Virus genome (UHGV): UHGV-0180765
Length of the DNA: 14,508 nt
Strand: one strand, 5' to 3'
Source: a virus
Within the stretch, counting starts at the first letter, position 1. Each line of letters opens with the position of its first letter. The notes beneath the pieces were generated by a model. It was given only the letters and a program-made list of their open reading frames with translations, was not told the origin of the DNA and ran no database searches. Made by a program: the position numbers and the translations under genes. Below are positions 2,381 to 14,508 of the stretch, in pieces.

Positions 2381-3799
2381 ATGAAATATTTCTCAACTGG
2401 TTTTTATGTTTCAAACTCCACATCTCTAGCTGAGATCTTTAATGAATGTTTTTCTTGGGTAAACGACTCACCACATACAACTTTTATTCCAGCACAATTA
2501 GTATGTGATTATAAAAGCGAGGAGTACTTCATAGAGTCTAAAAATGAAAGAATTGATATAATAACTTATAAAAACAAAGATACTAGTTTAGGCTGTTTTA
2601 GGTATTCGAAAATATCTGAGCCACACAAATGGGTAACAGATATTTCAATTAATAAAAATCTCAAAACTGATACCATGTGGATTCAGGTGGAATCTAGCGT
2701 TGTAAGCCAAGATGCAGCTTATCTAGCCCCGCAACCTAAGAAACCATTAGTTGTTATGAGATTGATTGATAAATTTCCTGGTGGTCTTGATGATATTTTC
2801 AAGGTGTCAGTCGAACCTCATTCCTTAGATGATACTGATGAACATTTAAATATAGCAGCTAAAGTTATAAATGGTGAAACTGACAACAGACTACCAATAA
2901 TATACGTTAGCTCCAAGTATTTTTTTAATGAACATGCTCACAATATCATCCCAGAACGCCTTGCAAGAAAGGTATGCGGATTAGCACATGTATTAATTGA
3001 GCCTAGCAATAGACTATTTTCTATTAAGCTAAAAAATGAGACAAATGCTAAAAATGCCTATGCTGGTGCTGTTGGTATCTATTGGCCACGGGGTCAAAAT
3101 ATCAGTTTTTATCGCCGTGGTGAGAAAACCGCAAAAGAATTTGAAGATGAGTTATTTGATGATGTTGTAAGAGCTACGACTACAATGGCTCCTGTCTCAG
3201 ATAGTGGATGGAGTGAGATACAAACCAGAAAAACGAAAGACTCTATTAACTCACTCAAAGAAAGAGGAGAATACACACGCGAACTGATGGCGCTTTACGA
3301 AGCCGATAATGTTGCGAAAGATGACCAAATAGAAGATCTTAAGCATAAGATCTCCTCTTTAGAGCACAGAGTACGCACTCTTCAATCACAAGCTTCAGCC
3401 CAAGGAAGCATTGCGCTTAATGCTGGTGAAGAGACTGACTTTTTTGATGGAGAAATCAAAAATATAATTATTGACGCACTAAAAACTGCCATAAAAAATA
3501 AAAATGAATTTGGTAGAAGCTACCATATCTTATCATCCCTAATTGCCAATAATGAATACAATAAAGAAACCGAGAGTCGCCGCCAATTACTTAAAAGGAC
3601 TTTAACAGGTTACAGAAGCATGGATAGCGCAACACAAAGAAATTTAAAGGACTTAGGTTTCAGTGCGTCAAGCGATGGAAAACACTGGAAGTTAACATAT
3701 AATGAAGACCCTCGATATTCCTATATTTTACCTAAAACAGGAAGTGACCACAGAGGTTCTTTAAATGCTATCTCGGATATAGCAAATATTATTTTCTAA
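2381..3799 (+). CDS. hypothetical protein, low-GC orphan gene (function unknown; candidate accessory/defence cargo)
   Basis: 472-aa ORF with AAGGAAA RBS 4-5 nt before ATG 2381. Strongly AT-rich relative to the flanking lambda-like genes (by eye, not computed). Opposite strand to both flanking operons. Predicted coiled-coil segment in the middle (LKHKISSLEHRVRTLQSQ). No family recognised. Confidence 0.7.
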   Translation: MKYFSTGFYVSNSTSLAEIFNECFSWVNDSPHTTFIPAQLVCDYKSEEYFIESKNERIDIITYKNKDTSLGCFRYSKISEPHKWVTDISINKNLKTDTMWIQVESSVVSQDAAYLAPQPKKPLVVMRLIDKFPGGLDDIFKVSVEPHSLDDTDEHLNIAAKVINGETDNRLPIIYVSSKYFFNEHAHNIIPERLARKVCGLAHVLIEPSNRLFSIKLKNETNAKNAYAGAVGIYWPRGQNISFYRRGEKTAKEFEDELFDDVVRATTTMAPVSDSGWSEIQTRKTKDSINSLKERGEYTRELMALYEADNVAKDDQIEDLKHKISSLEHRVRTLQSQASAQGSIALNAGEETDFFDGEIKNIIIDALKTAIKNKNEFGRSYHILSSLIANNEYNKETESRRQLLKRTLTGYRSMDSATQRNLKDLGFSASSDGKHWKLTYNEDPRYSYILPKTGSDHRGSLNAISDIANIIF

Positions 3800-3806
3800 T
3801 AAATTT

Positions 3807-3834
3807 CAATAGCACTCACAAATGAGTGCTATTG
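3807..3834. terminator. strong hairpin between convergent genes (putative bidirectional terminator)
   Basis: Inverted repeat caatagcactca / tgagtgctattg with 4-nt loop (caaa), 12 nt after the stop of the 472-aa ORF and 17 nt from the stop of the convergent 84-aa ORF. T-tracts on both sides are weak. Confidence 0.5.
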
Positions 3835-5155: not shown

Positions 5156-6081
5156 AAATCCACCCCGTAAATCCAGTCAGTGTTTGTCAGGTCGAGTTTT
5201 GATTTTCCGGCTGTCACGCCAGCCTGTTGCTTGTTACGGTTGATTTCGAGTTGGGTCCACTTGTCGCGGAGTTTGGCCGGACTTAGCACGTTACCGGACC
5301 AGAAGTTGTCCTGGCATGCCCAGCGGAACAGCACGCACATGTCGCGGTGGTTACGGCCGTCACGTTCACGCATCAGGCGGATATCGTTAGCCCACCCTGC
5401 AAAATTCGGTTTTCTGGCTGATGGCGCGATGGTCTTCACCATGTCAAACATCCACTCTGCGGCGGTCAGGTCTTCTGCTGTCCCCCACTTGCTGCCACTC
5501 TGAATTGCAGCATCCGGTTTAACCACAGGAAGATCGTCTTCTGGTTGGTCAGAGGATTCGCCAGAATTCTCGGACGAAAAAGGTTTTATATTGTCTTTTG
5601 TTAGTTTGTCTTTTGTGTTTACCTGATTCGGGTAAACGCCTTTACCTGATTTGGGTAAACTTTTCTTACCTGATTCAGGTAAATTTACCTCTTTCAGGTA
5701 AACTTTATTTTTCTTACCTGATTCGGGTAATGTTGACCATTCACTGACCACATTATTAATGCCTATATTCCGCCCGCTCTGAATAAAAATCCCACGCTTT
5801 ACCAGAGCACTTTTTGCAGCAGAACACTTGTGCGGCAATATCCCGGTCAACTCGGAAAGTTGCTCGTTGCTCACCCAATCCAGTTTTTTATTAAAGCCAT
5901 ATGTTTTGCGCATGACAGCCAGGAAGACCAGAAGCTGGTGCTGTGTTAATCCGGCCAGCATTACAGCTTCCAGCAACTCATTTGCAATGCGCGTATAACC
6001 ATCATCGAGATCTGCCACGCGCGGCTCCTTTTGTGCCGCATCCGGCACAGGAAAATTGAATATCTCAGCAGTGTTTGCCAT
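5152..6081 (-). CDS. O: replication initiator O (hybrid: non-lambda N-terminal iteron-binding domain, lambda-like C-terminal P-interaction domain)
   Basis: Start placed at ATG 6079-6081, preceded by GGAGG plus 4 nt; the N-terminus MANTAEIFNF... parallels lambda O MTNTAKILNF.... The C-terminal half (SSENSGESSDQPEDDL...WIYGVDL) matches lambda O as recalled. The ori iterons lie inside the gene. The ORF track's longer start at 6171 is less likely. Confidence 0.85.
   Translation of the reverse strand: MANTAEIFNFPVPDAAQKEPRVADLDDGYTRIANELLEAVMLAGLTQHQLLVFLAVMRKTYGFNKKLDWVSNEQLSELTGILPHKCSAAKSALVKRGIFIQSGRNIGINNVVSEWSTLPESGKKNKVYLKEVNLPESGKKSLPKSGKGVYPNQVNTKDKLTKDNIKPFSSENSGESSDQPEDDLPVVKPDAAIQSGSKWGTAEDLTAAEWMFDMVKTIAPSARKPNFAGWANDIRLMRERDGRNHRDMCVLFRWACQDNFWSGNVLSPAKLRDKWTQLEINRNKQQAGVTAGKSKLDLTNTDWIYGVDL
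5618..5732. repeat. replication origin iterons (five ~19-bp direct repeats) with adjacent T-rich tract
   Basis: Five copies of TTACCTGATTCGGGTAA-like repeats starting near 5618, 5641, 5666, 5685 and 5714, each internally palindromic (TTACC...GGTAA). They are followed at 5591-5617 by a duplicated ttgtcttttg T-rich tract. Located inside the O linker region, as lambda ori is. Confidence 0.75.
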
Positions 6082-6707: not shown

Positions 6708-6752
6708 AATTGACTCCTTTAGTTTGAATTGACTGTTAAGTTGATTGCTTAT

Positions 6753-6765
6753 TGTTAAAGAGCGT
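6753..6765 (-). promoter_or_regulatory. boxA-like element (nutR-type) downstream of the cro-like gene
   Basis: The minus strand reads CGCTCTTTAACAA, the boxA consensus, 12 nt after the cro-like stop codon, where nutR sits in lambda. No convincing boxB hairpin was found next to it. Confidence 0.45.
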
Positions 6766-6776
6766 GAAATGGAAAT

Positions 6777-7007
6777 TTAAGCTGCGTTCTTTTCGGTGTG
6801 TGGAAACAACTTCGGAAGATCCGGGCGAATCTGGTATGCCTTCACTACTCCACCAGTAGCCGTAACAATGCTGCCGACATGTTCAGGGGATACCTTTGCT
6901 TTGTTGTGAAGCCACTTATAGACGGCCTGCTGTGAAACTTCGCAGGCAGCGCCCAGTTTCTTTTGTGAACCAACGATATTGATCGCTGTTTTGATAGCTG
7001 GGTTCAT
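6777..7007 (-). CDS. Cro/YdaS-family helix-turn-helix regulator
   Basis: 76-aa ORF with GGAGG RBS 5 nt before ATG 7007; an HTH-like segment (GSQKKLGAACEVSQQAVYKW); divergent from the CI-like repressor gene across an operator region. Confidence 0.6.
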   Translation of the reverse strand: MNPAIKTAINIVGSQKKLGAACEVSQQAVYKWLHNKAKVSPEHVGSIVTATGGVVKAYQIRPDLPKLFPHTEKNAA

Positions 7008-7111
7008 AACAACCTCCGTGGTTAATTCGAATCAAGATTAAAACTATGGTTGTTTTTAGTCAACAACCATTTTCGTTTGATAGAATAAAACCTTGGTTGT
7101 ACATTTGGACT
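7008..7111. promoter_or_regulatory. oR-type operator region with divergent pR (minus) and pRM (plus) promoters
   Basis: Perfect inverted repeat ATGGTTGTT-7nt-AACAACCAT at 7046-7070, plus further TGGTTGT/ACAACCA half-sites at 7008-7014, 7019-7025 (degenerate) and 7094-7100. Candidate pRM: -35 TTGATA 7077-7082, 17-nt spacer, -10 TACATT 7100-7105, placing the transcript start at or next to the cI ATG (leaderless, as for lambda pRM). Candidate pR on the minus strand: -35 TTGACT (plus 7058-7063) and -10 TTTAAT (plus 7037-7042). Confidence 0.6.
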
Positions 7112-7801
7112 ATGAAAACAACACTCTCAGAAAGACTTAAAGAAGCCAGATTAGCGCGAGGCCTTACACAAAAGGCGCTTGGGGATTTGGTCGGGGTTAG
7201 CCAAGCTGCTATTCAGAAAATCGAAACAGGGAAAGCTAACCAAACAACTAAAATCGTGGAGATCGCGAACGCTTTGGGTGTGCGCGCAGAATGGTTATCT
7301 TCTGGCGTTGGAAATATGTCAGACAGTACAGTGCAACCAATACCATCAACTGTCAGCCATTCCAAATACTTTAAGATTGACGTTCTTGATATAGAAGTGA
7401 GTGCCGGGCCGGGAGTCATCAACCGTGAGTTTGTAGAAGTTCTACGCTCGGTTGAGTACTCGTTTGACGATGCTCGTCACATGTTCGATGGTAGGAAGGC
7501 AGAAAATATCCGCATCATTAACGTACGCGGTGACAGCATGTCAGGAACGATCGAACCAGGTGATCTGCTGTTCGTTGATATCACGGTTAAATCTTTCGAC
7601 GGTGATGGCATCTATGCGTTTCTGTACGACGACACCGCCCATGTAAAGCGCCTGCAAATGATGAAGGATAAGCTGCTGGTTATCTCTGATAACAAGAGCT
7701 ACTCACCGTGGGACCCGATCGAGAAAGACGAGATGAACCGGGTGTTTATCTTCGGGAAAGTTATTGGGAGCATGCCGCAAACATATAGGAAGCATGGTTA
7801 G
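7112..7801 (+). CDS. CI-type prophage repressor (XRE HTH + S24 LexA-like autopeptidase domain)
   Basis: 229-aa product from ATG 7112 (MKTTLSERLKEARLARGLTQKALGDLVGVSQAAIQKIE...). N-terminal HTH; C-terminal S24 motifs GDSM (Ser nucleophile) and VKRL (Lys). The upstream extension to 7046 in the ORF track is spurious, as its ATG is part of the operator palindrome. Confidence 0.85.
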   Translation: MKTTLSERLKEARLARGLTQKALGDLVGVSQAAIQKIETGKANQTTKIVEIANALGVRAEWLSSGVGNMSDSTVQPIPSTVSHSKYFKIDVLDIEVSAGPGVINREFVEVLRSVEYSFDDARHMFDGRKAENIRIINVRGDSMSGTIEPGDLLFVDITVKSFDGDGIYAFLYDDTAHVKRLQMMKDKLLVISDNKSYSPWDPIEKDEMNRVFIFGKVIGSMPQTYRKHG

Positions 7802-7872: not shown

Positions 7873-8784
7873 ATGAGCCATCAGTCCGCCCACCAACAAG
7901 AAATGTCTTTATTTCCTGTAAAAGAAGTTGAAGTAAACGGTGTACAAATGGGTGTTCTCAATGATGGAACTCCATTTTTGAGTCTCCGTGGATTATCTAG
8001 GTTATGTGGGGTCGATCACACCACACTTTTACCTCTCACCACCAACTGGTCAATAGAAAAGAATAAACCCAGAGGAAGGAGAATTGCGGAGCTTCTTTCA
8101 GAGAATGGTTTTAAAGGTGATCAATTATATTCCGTTGTCGGCGGAGGCGCATTTGGTGATACACATGCCTATCCAGATGCCGTATGCATGGCAATTCTTG
8201 AATATTATGCTTTCGATGCCACACAGGTTGATAGCACTATAGCCAGGAAAAATTACCGCCTATTAGCACGTCAAACACTTCGAGACTATATATACAAAAG
8301 TGTAGGTATTGACCCGAGAAATCCAATTAGTGGCGCCTGGAAATGTTTTCAAGAGCGAATATTGCTTAATGACAAAATTCCTGCAGGTTTCTTCAGTGTT
8401 TTTAGAGAGATGGTCGATATCACAGTTCCACTTATCAATGCAGGATTTGAGCTTGGCCCAAAAACAGTACCTGATATTAGTGTGGGTGGACGATGGGCAA
8501 TCCACTGGAAGAAAAACAATCTTAGTGAAAAATATGGCGATGTGAAAAAATATCCACATGAATATCCAGATTGGTTTCCTCAAAGTAAAGCAGGAAAAGT
8601 TCCTGCCAATATTTATCCGGAAGAGGCTTTAGGTGAATTTCGCAGATGGCTAAGAGAAGAATACATTCCAAAGGGTTTCAAAGATTATCTTGCTGATAAA
8701 GTTCAGCAGAAAGTAATTGAAAATACTAAGGCTATTGAAGTTTTAGAAAATTTGCAGCGCCCAAATCTCCCTAAGGCTCGTTAA
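7873..8784 (+). CDS. hypothetical protein encoded between repressor and pL (rexAB-equivalent position); function unknown
   Basis: 303-aa ORF, AT-rich relative to cI (by eye), followed by its own intrinsic terminator. The N-terminal ~60 residues (LFPVKEVEVNGVQMGVLNDGTPFLSLRGLSRLCGV) loosely resemble the pattern of Bro-N/ORF6N-type phage DNA-binding domains; this is an impression, not an alignment. C-terminus is Tyr/Trp/Pro-rich. Confidence 0.7.
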   Translation: MSHQSAHQQEMSLFPVKEVEVNGVQMGVLNDGTPFLSLRGLSRLCGVDHTTLLPLTTNWSIEKNKPRGRRIAELLSENGFKGDQLYSVVGGGAFGDTHAYPDAVCMAILEYYAFDATQVDSTIARKNYRLLARQTLRDYIYKSVGIDPRNPISGAWKCFQERILLNDKIPAGFFSVFREMVDITVPLINAGFELGPKTVPDISVGGRWAIHWKKNNLSEKYGDVKKYPHEYPDWFPQSKAGKVPANIYPEEALGEFRRWLREEYIPKGFKDYLADKVQQKVIENTKAIEVLENLQRPNLPKAR

Positions 8785-8791
8785 TTCTCAT

Positions 8792-8818
8792 CCCGGCTGC
8801 CATGCCGGGTTTCTTTTG
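8792..8818 (+). terminator. intrinsic (rho-independent) terminator after the 303-aa gene
   Basis: Stem CCCGGC (8792-8797), loop tgccat, stem GCCGGG (8804-8809), then TTTCTTTTG, beginning 8 nt after the stop codon. Confidence 0.65.
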
Positions 8819-8904: not shown

Positions 8905-8990
8905 TCTTAAATACAACCAGTTATATCTAAAACAACCAACAAAACAACTTTTGTTGTTGACGATAAAACAACTATAGTTTTAAATGAATT
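8905..8990 (+). promoter_or_regulatory. putative oL/pL region
   Basis: The oR half-site recurs here (ACAACCA at 8913-8919 and 8932-8938; palindrome AACAACttttGTTGTT at 8943-8958). Candidate promoter: -35 TTGACG 8957-8962, 17-nt spacer, -10 TTAAAT 8980-8985, directed toward gam/bet/exo. Operator-like repeats overlap the promoter. Confidence 0.45.
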
Positions 8991-9262
8991 CATCGCAACA
9001 ACACAACGATACGGCAATCACCTGATTCACCGTTGCGATGACCGCTTAGATCCGCAGCTTGAATTTCAGCAGGCTCCGGGGAGTGCGAGGGGTGAAGCGG
9101 ACGCGTGAACGTCGGTGTGACCAGCTGAAATCAACTCAACACTTCATACCTCAGTCGCTTCAACGAGGCGGCTTAGTTATGACAACCGGCGGCCATCCAC
9201 CGCCTGAATACGCGCAGAAGTCTCTATATGTTCAGCAGCCCAGCTTACGGGCAGGAGTTTTT

Positions 9263-9469
9263 ATGGTTCATCAACATTACGGAACGCAGACCGTTAATCG
9301 AGGTGCGGTCATGCCAGGAATGCTGGTCAAACACAAAGATGGTACCTGGACTGCATCAGCTAATTTACGCGGACGGCTATATCTGCATCGCGGCATCGAG
9401 CGCACTTATACCCGTGATTTGCTCGTGGAAGTTTTTCTCGACGGACGCGGTAACGGCCTGAATCACTAA
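9263..9469 (+). CDS. hypothetical small protein upstream of gam (kil/cIII position); may be the C-terminal part of a longer N-like ORF
   Basis: ATG 9263 is preceded by AGGAG plus 5 nt; 68 aa. The same frame is open back to 9059 (TTG), with GTG at 9092, giving an Arg-rich N-terminus (RGVRGVKRTRERR). Start choice and identity unresolved. Confidence 0.35.
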
Positions 9470-9544
9470 TCCCCTTTCCTGTTTTCCTAATCAGCCTGGC
9501 ATTTCGCGGGCGATATTTTCACAGCCATTTTCAGGAGTTCAGCC

Positions 9545-9841
9545 ATGAACGCTTATTACATTCAGGATCGTCTTGAGGCTCAGAGCTGGGCACGTCACTA
9601 CCAGCTGATCGCCCGTGAAGAGAAAGAGGCAGAACTGGCAGACGACATGGAAAAAGGTCTTCCACAGCACCTGTTTGAATCACTCTGCATCGATCATTTG
9701 CAACGCCACGGGGCCAGCAAAAAAGCCATTACTCGTGCATTTGATGACGATGTTGAGTTTCAGGAGCGTATGGCAGAACACATCCGGTACATGGTTGAAA
9801 CCATTGCTCACCACCAGGTTGATATTGATTCAGAGGTATAA
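9545..9841 (+). CDS. gam: Gam (RecBCD inhibitor), short form
   Basis: 98-aa product [44 protein letters not shown]... matches lambda GamS as recalled. RBS AGGAG upstream. The GamL extension is interrupted by in-frame stops. Confidence 0.9.
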
Positions 9842-14455: not shown

Positions 14456-14508
14456 TGGTGCCGATAATAGGAGTCGAACCTACGACCTTCGCATTACGAA
14501 TGCGCTGC
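14456..14508 (-). tRNA. thrW: tRNA-Thr (anticodon CGU), 3' 53 nt only; continues beyond the window
   Basis: The reverse complement of the window end reads ...GCGCATTCGTAATGCGAAGGTCGTAGGTTCGACTCCTATTATCGGCACCA: anticodon loop TTCGTAA (anticodon CGT), T-arm GTAGG-TTCGACT-CCTAT, acceptor 3' strand, discriminator A and CCA. The 3' end points toward int, the usual att arrangement. Confidence 0.8.

Follow-up and report, generated by a model that had tools for sequence, protein, structure and literature searches.

A structured, non-coding leader ahead of a KilR-type kil gene in the early-left operon of a common N-less lambdoid prophage

What occupies the space between the early-left promoter and gam in a lambdoid prophage whose operon is so compact that only ~553 bp separate the predicted transcript start (~8992) from the gam ATG at 9545, compared with ~2.5 kb in lambda? 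The locus belongs to the virus genome UHGV-0180765, of which a stretch of 14,508 nucleotides, hereafter the window, was analyzed; its plus strand corresponds to the pL direction of a lambdoid prophage. The compactness, which had already been read from the sequence, is real: pL and gam lie 0.55 kb instead of 2.5 kb apart because N, ral, sieB, ea10 and cIII, which lambda carries, are all absent here. The original prediction had further proposed a possible N-like gene with an arginine-rich N-terminus in this interval, a strong start codon within the same frame, and a mosaic junction that breaks the long form of Gam. In our analysis, the interval most probably represents the start of the early-left operon in a common N-less lambdoid prophage similar to the Bievrevirus members Perceval, 4A7 and Lambda_4C10. 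We assign a probability of about 75% to this explanation as a whole, that is, to a predicted pL, a non-coding leader, kil starting at 9263, a joint to lambda-type DNA that leaves only GamS, and a structured leader module together with its proposed role. The coordinates are compiled in Table 1.

Table 1. Features in and around the pL–gam interval (window coordinates).
Feature	Position	Strand	Description or basis
cro, YdaS-like	6777-7007	-	YdaT-like cII, O and P genes lie beyond cro
cI	7046-7801	+	
BstA-like gene	7873-8784	+	
Terminator	8792-8809		between BstA-like gene and pL interval
oL operators	8943-8982		perfect AACAAC-N4-GTTGTT at 8943-8958 and related site at 8967-8982; half-sites recur in the cro/cI region
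Predicted pL	8957-8985	+	-35 TTGACG 8957-8962, 17-nt spacer, -10 TTAAAT 8980-8985
Hairpin at predicted transcript 5' end	8990-9041	+	10-bp stem, 8990-8999 with 9032-9041
Lineage-specific untranslated leader	9042-9144	+	contains the KRTRERR frame from GTG 9092
P1	9145-9181	+	12-pair hairpin, 9145-9158 with 9168-9181, two conserved internal mismatches
P2	9188-9204	+	hairpin GGCGG-CCATCCA-CCGCC
Conserved box GCGCAGAAGTCTC	9212-9224	+	alignments
P3	9238-9252	+	small hairpin GCCC-AGCTTAC-GGGC directly ahead of the SD
kil	SD AGGAG 9253-9257; ATG 9263 to TAA 9469	+	68 aa, KilR/phi80 type (FtsZ inhibitor family)
Mosaic joint and lambda-type kil/GamL remnant	9462-9544	+	alignment with lambda and phage D2, translations, terminator scan
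Terminator-like hairpin	9494-9511		lambda-type, shared with lambda; gam SD AGGAG at 9533-9537
gam, short form only (GamS, 98 aa)	9545-9841	+	PF06064 match
Order on the plus strand			cI, BstA-like gene, terminator, pL interval, gam, bet, exo, xis, int, tRNA fragment at window end

The 271-nt leader (8992-9262) was found in 2209 of 5426 complete E. coli genomes, a genome being counted if at least 80% of the 271 nt were covered. Among phage records, ~15 match the 781 bases around the interval over their full length at 91-97% identity, including PhiR47_2, IdasGreatGrand and Turner besides the three Bievrevirus members named above. In ~170 of the 185 matching phage records the overlap comprises only the last 98 query bases, which are collinear with lambda; the KilR-type arrangement is therefore a minority among phage records. 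The record of Perceval, an isolated phage of the same type, was examined from int through the early region and the nin/Q/lysis regions to its right end: Q is annotated and N is not. The prophage is very common and its genes at this locus are unexceptional representatives of known families; their arrangement is ordinary phage mosaicism, with the exception of a widely shared leader hairpin module that has no Rfam family.

Several observations concern the surroundings of the interval. The 303-aa product of the BstA-like gene between cI and pL belongs to the BstA abortive-infection family (phrog_6287, E = 7.5e-141), and relatives carry at this spot genes annotated as GevT/GevA, genes for hypothetical and transmembrane proteins, or no cargo. 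The 3' part of a tRNA gene at 14459-14508 (minus strand, 33.3 bits) adjoins the integrase gene and is likely the attachment site; a near-identical prophage in strain SK1144 adjoins icd instead. Four to five copies of TTTACCTGATTYGGGTAA-like inverted and direct repeats at 5618-5702, inside the O-like gene, presumably are replication-origin iterons, and a perfect 12-bp inverted repeat with a 4-nt loop at 3807-3834, just past a 472-aa ORF (2381-3799), probably is the terminator of this ORF. An sRNA termed svsR maps to the 3' end of cI in NC-SV-like lambdoid prophages (2026 paper, PMC12803456); it was rejected as an explanation of the leader because this end of cI (about 7700-7801 of the window) falls outside the interval.

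The beginning of the transcript can be placed by means of the immunity region. The AACAAC/GTTGTT half-sites found upstream of the interval also cluster in the cro/cI intergenic region (7008-7101), and with up to three mismatches the operator motif occurs 18 times in the window, with 8.0 matches expected, clustered in the oL and cro/cI regions. Because the motif is common to both, the sites at 8943-8982 and 7008-7101 are oL and oR of the resident repressor. The former overlap a promoter-like site (8957-8985) that is in register with TTGATA-N17-TATTAT of hetero-immune relatives, both being located 7 nt ahead of TCGCAAC. Its -10 element is weak, and a simple consensus promoter scan of the window did not list it, for which reason pL is a prediction only; the transcript is predicted to start at ~8991-8993. 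Homology between immunity types begins at ~8992-8994, for a third type from O157 strains at ~9026.

The first bases of this transcript may form a hairpin. The 9-bp inverted repeat that had been described right after the predicted start exists, but its arms comprise 10 bp, TCATCGCAAC (8990-8999) and GTTGCGATGA (9032-9041), and the 9-mer GTTGCGATG is located at 9032-9040, not at 9033-9041. By itself the repeat is unremarkable, since 21 inverted repeats with arms of 9 bp or longer and no more than 60 bp between them occur in the window. The folded hairpin reaches -14.4 kcal/mol (z = -3.46; none of 200 shuffles was equally stable), and its base marks the point from which the three immunity types are homologous. 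In the second type, the stem base reads ATGTCGCAAC or ATATCGCAAC, whereby pairing is kept via G-U; one variant (L186) has a mismatch in the stem, and the O157-type relatives lack the first 35 nt, keep only CATCG/CGATG and have largely lost the hairpin. Across the relatives compared, the stem shows no compensatory changes, and the conservation of 8992-9142 says little because all copies are at least 96% identical. It is well established that 5' stem-loops protect mRNA against RNase E, for example in ompA. By analogy, the 5'-terminal fold could shield the transcript from 5'-end-dependent decay, which makes 8990-9041 a modestly supported candidate for a stabilizing hairpin.

A more far-reaching role can be imagined for the same segment: the first 150 nt of the leader (8992-9142) might act in cis as an antiterminator RNA in place of N, in the manner of put in HK022 and HK639. 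The terminator read-through brought about by put RNAs is cis-acting and requires the zinc domain of the RNA polymerase beta-prime subunit. The segment is located exactly at the putL place of a phage without N, possesses the stable 5' hairpin and is joined unchanged to three different immunity modules. However, blastn reveals no similarity to the pL-put regions of HK022 or HK639, positions 9042-9144 fold no better than shuffles (z = +0.43), the O157-type relatives do without the first 35 nt, and there is no strong terminator between pL and exo that would need antitermination. Before gam, a terminator scan yielded only two terminator-like hairpins, one inside kil (9412-9428) and the lambda-type one at 9494-9511. 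Moreover, none of 22 kil loci on genome contigs searched via kil contains a diverged copy of 8992-9142 from another species, so that covariation of this segment cannot be tested. We consider the put-like reading highly improbable.

The next part of the leader contains the arginine-rich frame from which the idea of an N gene arose. The frame was described correctly: it is open from 9059 to 9469 (136 aa), and from GTG 9092, with GGAG 8 nt ahead, it reads KRTRERR. As this string resembles an arginine-rich motif and the window holds no other N candidate, GTG 9092 could start an N-like antiterminator whose N-terminus binds a boxB-like hairpin in the leader. Conservation speaks against this: of the 36 distinct leaders compared, drawn from phage records and IMG/VR contigs, at least 14 have the frame from 9092 broken by a TAG, a 5-nt duplication or 1-nt indels, with CAG changed to TAG at 9152-9154 in ten leaders, TCAAC duplicated in two and single nucleotides deleted between 9092 and 9263 in another two. 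A boxA/boxB search after pL and a profile search against N families had been suggested as checks. No boxA (YGCTCTTWA, up to one mismatch) occurs in 8990-9270; residues 1-59 of the 136-aa ORF match nothing in Pfam, PHROGs or NCBIfam, Pfam recognizes no part of the product, and the PHROGs and NCBIfam matches set in only at residue 60-69, in the part that corresponds to Kil, a family that starts at Met 9263. Furthermore, RefSeq annotates no gene in the leader, and 9042-9144 has no family or DNA similarity beyond the close lineage. The lambda N/nut system comprises a conserved ~100-aa ORF after pL, boxA plus boxB, and N-family similarity; the locus shares with it an arginine-rich string in an open frame after pL, but the frame is unconserved, boxA/boxB do not follow pL and no profile matches. 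The 271 nt of the leader up to 9262 are not conserved as coding sequence, and the leader is non-coding. The apparent arginine-rich motif is a chance reading, and an N-like gene, a proposal largely refuted already, is barely credible.

The only perfect boxA of the window, the extended CGCTCTTTAACAA, belongs to the other operon: it occupies the nutR position at 6752-6764 (minus strand), flanked by the stop of the cro-like gene and the start of the cII-like gene, and is conserved in place among same-immunity relatives. It is followed by no obvious boxB hairpin and has no counterpart at pL. Its presence may point to host Nus factors that protect the pR operon of this N-less phage against Rho in the manner of rrn operons.

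What the frame does encode becomes apparent from its downstream part. The strong internal start noticed earlier at 9263 is real and coincides with the true start of kil: an AGGAG precedes the ATG with a 5-nt spacer, in the same frame as 9059-9469. The product matches phrog_294 ('Kil protein for bacterial septation inhibition', E = 1.3e-37) as well as NCBIfam NF008465 ('FtsZ inhibitor protein'), the profile of which covers residues 1-68 with its positions 1-70 (E = 1.8e-17) at a score of 63 bits, which falls short of the curated cut-off (92). The product shares 41% identity with phi80 Kil, the N-termini of seven family members including Rac KilR align at Met1, and RefSeq WP_000233577.1 has the same coordinates, with a 207-nt gene and a start corresponding to 9263. 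The gene order is kil, gam, bet, exo, and kil is likewise found upstream of gam/recombination genes in phi80, HK225 and KO-TP1. Judging by these matches, the first gene of the operon is a kil of the KilR/phi80 type, read from ATG 9263 and encoding 68 aa. The original prediction was thus right about the start signal, but it did not recognize the ORF as kil and missed the conserved structured leader at 9145-9262. Rac KilR blocks cell division through FtsZ (PMC5793797, PMC12482147), and its expression affects host survival under stress (PMC5793797); by family membership, the product encoded here would be expected to exert an FtsZ-directed division block as well.

By alignment, the stop codon of kil sits at a recombination joint with lambda-type DNA. 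Lambda-like sequence had been predicted to begin abruptly around 9470; the alignment to lambda and phage D2 starts at ~9462-9464 (..TCACTAA..), and the interval is accordingly not wholly collinear with the lambda kil-gam region. Upstream of the joint, lambda has its own 47-aa kil, which is unrelated to KilR, overlaps the GamL start and is replaced here, whereas from the joint onward the DNA is collinear, the hairpin at 9494-9511 is common to both, and Gam agrees with lambda GamS at all but 3 of 98 residues. The start and N-terminal codons of GamL have either been lost or been shifted out of frame. Two in-frame stops precede the gam ATG, TAA 9467-9469 (also the kil stop) and TAA 9488-9490, just as had been noticed; the gam frame itself, however, reads SPFLFS*SAWHFAG rather than the proposed SPFPVFL, and the lambda-like ...PFPVFLIS... 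sits in another frame because the T run at 9528-9531 is one T longer than that of lambda. With the GamL N-terminal coding region frame-shifted and stopped, only GamS is encoded, as the original prediction had it: Gam residues 1-98 match PF06064 positions 1-98 (E = 3.4e-64), the 98-aa domain, with no upstream in-frame start. In phage D2 (L012, 1890-2182), the shared leader and its ATG run directly into an interior segment of lambda cIII (MRKLRDGW...), with lambda kil and a long gam behind it. The recombination point of this phage falls precisely where the leader module ends, a place at which its record has Ns.

The module in question (9145-9262) consists of P1, P2, a conserved box, P3 and the SD, and many lambdoid phages carry it ahead of different first genes. 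Positions 9143-9245 match short stretches in phi80, HK639, HK225, a P22-like Salmonella phage, and Klebsiella and Enterobacter phages, in which the element sits just after the intrinsic terminator of the upstream gene (gene N with terminator tL1A in phi80). A pattern scan anchored on TTATGA plus a second hairpin retrieved >120 IMG/VR contigs with 51 distinct core versions; the P2 part of the pattern biases this sample towards P2, while P1 was not in the pattern. The covariance model R1 of the core scores 86.7 bits at 9145-9204 (E = 5e-21), which places the locus among the carriers of the P1-P2 element, together with ~6 of 22 kil loci from other Enterobacteriaceae. Rfam 15 was searched with both gathering and permissive thresholds: no family scored above chance in 8960-9300, the tRNA fragment was the only hit in the window, and the element in HK225, phi80, HK639 and KO-TP1 had no match either; a full-text literature search for the P2 sequence retrieved no paper.

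Within P1, AUG 9179-9181 pairs with CAU 9145-9147, and the GAG at 9165-9167 in the loop is kept across versions. The base of the helix (CAUA with UAUG) is invariant in sequence in all 51 versions. Of the P1 cells in the alignment, 97.9% are paired, and seven pairs show compensatory changes; the covariation score is 0.417, whereas sliding the partners yields 0.083 at most and none of 500 shuffles scored as high. Since 41 cells are G-U/U-G versus 6 A-C/C-A, the pL-sense RNA is the folding strand, and this excess also disfavours an antisense sRNA or a DNA cruciform as the basis of P1. Together, P1 and P2 fold with a z of -3.46 relative to shuffles. In loci found independently via kil, P2 reads GCGG-CTATCCA-CCGC or contains a G-U pair; the box downstream of it, also written GCGCAGAAGTCT, is conserved, and the P3 stem appears as GCC/GGC (55), GCCC/GGGC (26) or GCGC/GCGC (19) among 105 distinct modules. 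The gene after the module, whichever it is, mostly starts 83-102 nt past the P1 AUG and in a minority ~205-230 nt past it. These comparisons identify P1 as a selected RNA helix on the sense strand and the module as portable.

Two further candidate functions were looked at. As for a Rho loading site, the C/G ratios of 1.5-1.7 stay below the 95th percentile of the window (2.0), and we make no such claim. A T run follows P2 in HK639 (L003, 2524-2552) and in L041, L097 and L017, and the HK639 record annotates a terminator here; in those phages P2 may also act as a weak terminator, the window being without a T run after P2.

Could the module be conserved as DNA rather than as RNA? P1-P3 might be linker DNA at module boundaries that is kept as homology for recombination among lambdoid phages: the genes on both flanks are unrelated between phages, the joints coincide with the module ends, and D2 is recombinant right after the module's ATG. 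Yet homology alone does not predict seven compensatory P1 pairs, 97.9% pairing or the preponderance of G-U over A-C cells, and P3 also varies in a pair-preserving manner. We therefore regard a linker without RNA function as unlikely.

The P1 AUG raises another alternative, as public phage records annotate 'Kil' proteins of 96-140 aa that take in leader sequence. According to the annotation of one such record, IdasGreatGrand, Kil would be made as a 96-aa N-terminally extended form from ATG 9179, a codon that is preceded by GAGG at ~10 nt and that shares the frame of kil in the majority of this lineage (27 cases). On the other hand, this AUG is base-paired in P1, Met 9263 is where the family profile begins, and Turner, L088, L064 and L087 have lost the frame; outside this lineage, the ORFs that begin at this AUG span 9-50 codons, run in different frames and terminate ahead of kil (e.g., HK225). 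We judge the extended form very unlikely. A conserved leader peptide or a coupling ORF starting at AUG 9179 was rejected as well, for frame, length and stop position vary.

How, then, might the module act? We propose that it works in cis on the sense RNA: P1 would lock up the upstream AUG (9179) and the GAG(G), the true SD and AUG would be presented in an open stretch past P3, and the module would thereby determine how strongly the toxic first delayed-early gene is translated, how stable its mRNA is, or both. In relatives that encode N, only transcripts reading through the terminator behind the N-like gene would extend into the module. Here, where N and this terminator are absent, kil, gam, bet and exo would be read straight from pL. 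Following this proposal, P1-P2-box-P3 (9145-9262) would be an RNA leader with a regulatory role in cis, one that has no Rfam 15 entry and for which the literature searched yielded no description, spread by recombination among many lambdoid phages of Enterobacteriaceae and present in reduced form before cIII of lambda and HK022. Behind an N-dependent terminator, such a leader would govern how the first delayed-early gene (kil, cIII or others) is translated or how stable its mRNA is, and it would serve here as the sole post-transcriptional check on toxic kil. We advance this reading of the module tentatively and rate its chances at slightly less than even.

Several consequences emerge. Gene calls can be corrected, as several of the public 96-140-aa 'Kil' annotations include untranslated leader. 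Functional lambdoid phages of this type run an early-left operon without N and represent a simple natural case for delayed-early timing without antitermination. With its covariation, the P1-P3 leader offers a testable candidate for the control of kil and cIII expression, and if the cis-regulatory reading is true, the module would be the only post-transcriptional check on a kil gene carried by ~40% of E. coli genomes. What was originally found at this locus is routine; the structured leader is the one item worth follow-up.

The locus can finally be compared with known systems beyond lambda N/nut and lambda kil-gam. The kil product shares with Rac KilR and phi80 Kil the length class (68-73 aa), an alignment from Met1 and the place in the pL operon upstream of recombination genes, but is only 34% identical to Rac KilR. 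Rac further differs in that it carries an unrelated sRNA, KilS, in the kilR 5' UTR (PMC8175672) and no copy of the P1-P2 element; homology of our leader to the Rac kilR leader or to KilS was rejected, as there is no similarity. Immediately upstream of cIII in lambda and HK022, model R1 finds a weak, P2-less counterpart (14.6 and 17.5 bits, respectively). Like P1, this hairpin has the form CATACC...GAG...GTTATG with an AUG at its 3' base, a terminator-like hairpin precedes it, and a short ORF follows that ends at the SD or start of the next gene; it differs in its weak match to the model, in having neither P2 nor P3, and in that the next gene is cIII instead of kil. The lambda hairpin may correspond to one of the sites in the tL2 terminator cluster (Luk and Szybalski 1983). 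With the put RNAs of HK022 and HK639, the leader has in common the setting of an N-less lambdoid phage with a conserved RNA segment right after pL, whereas sequence similarity and, beyond the 5' hairpin, a supported two-hairpin structure are absent here. HK639 carries put and, 1 kb further on, the P1-P2 element, and since both occur in one phage, put and the P1-P2 element are distinct.
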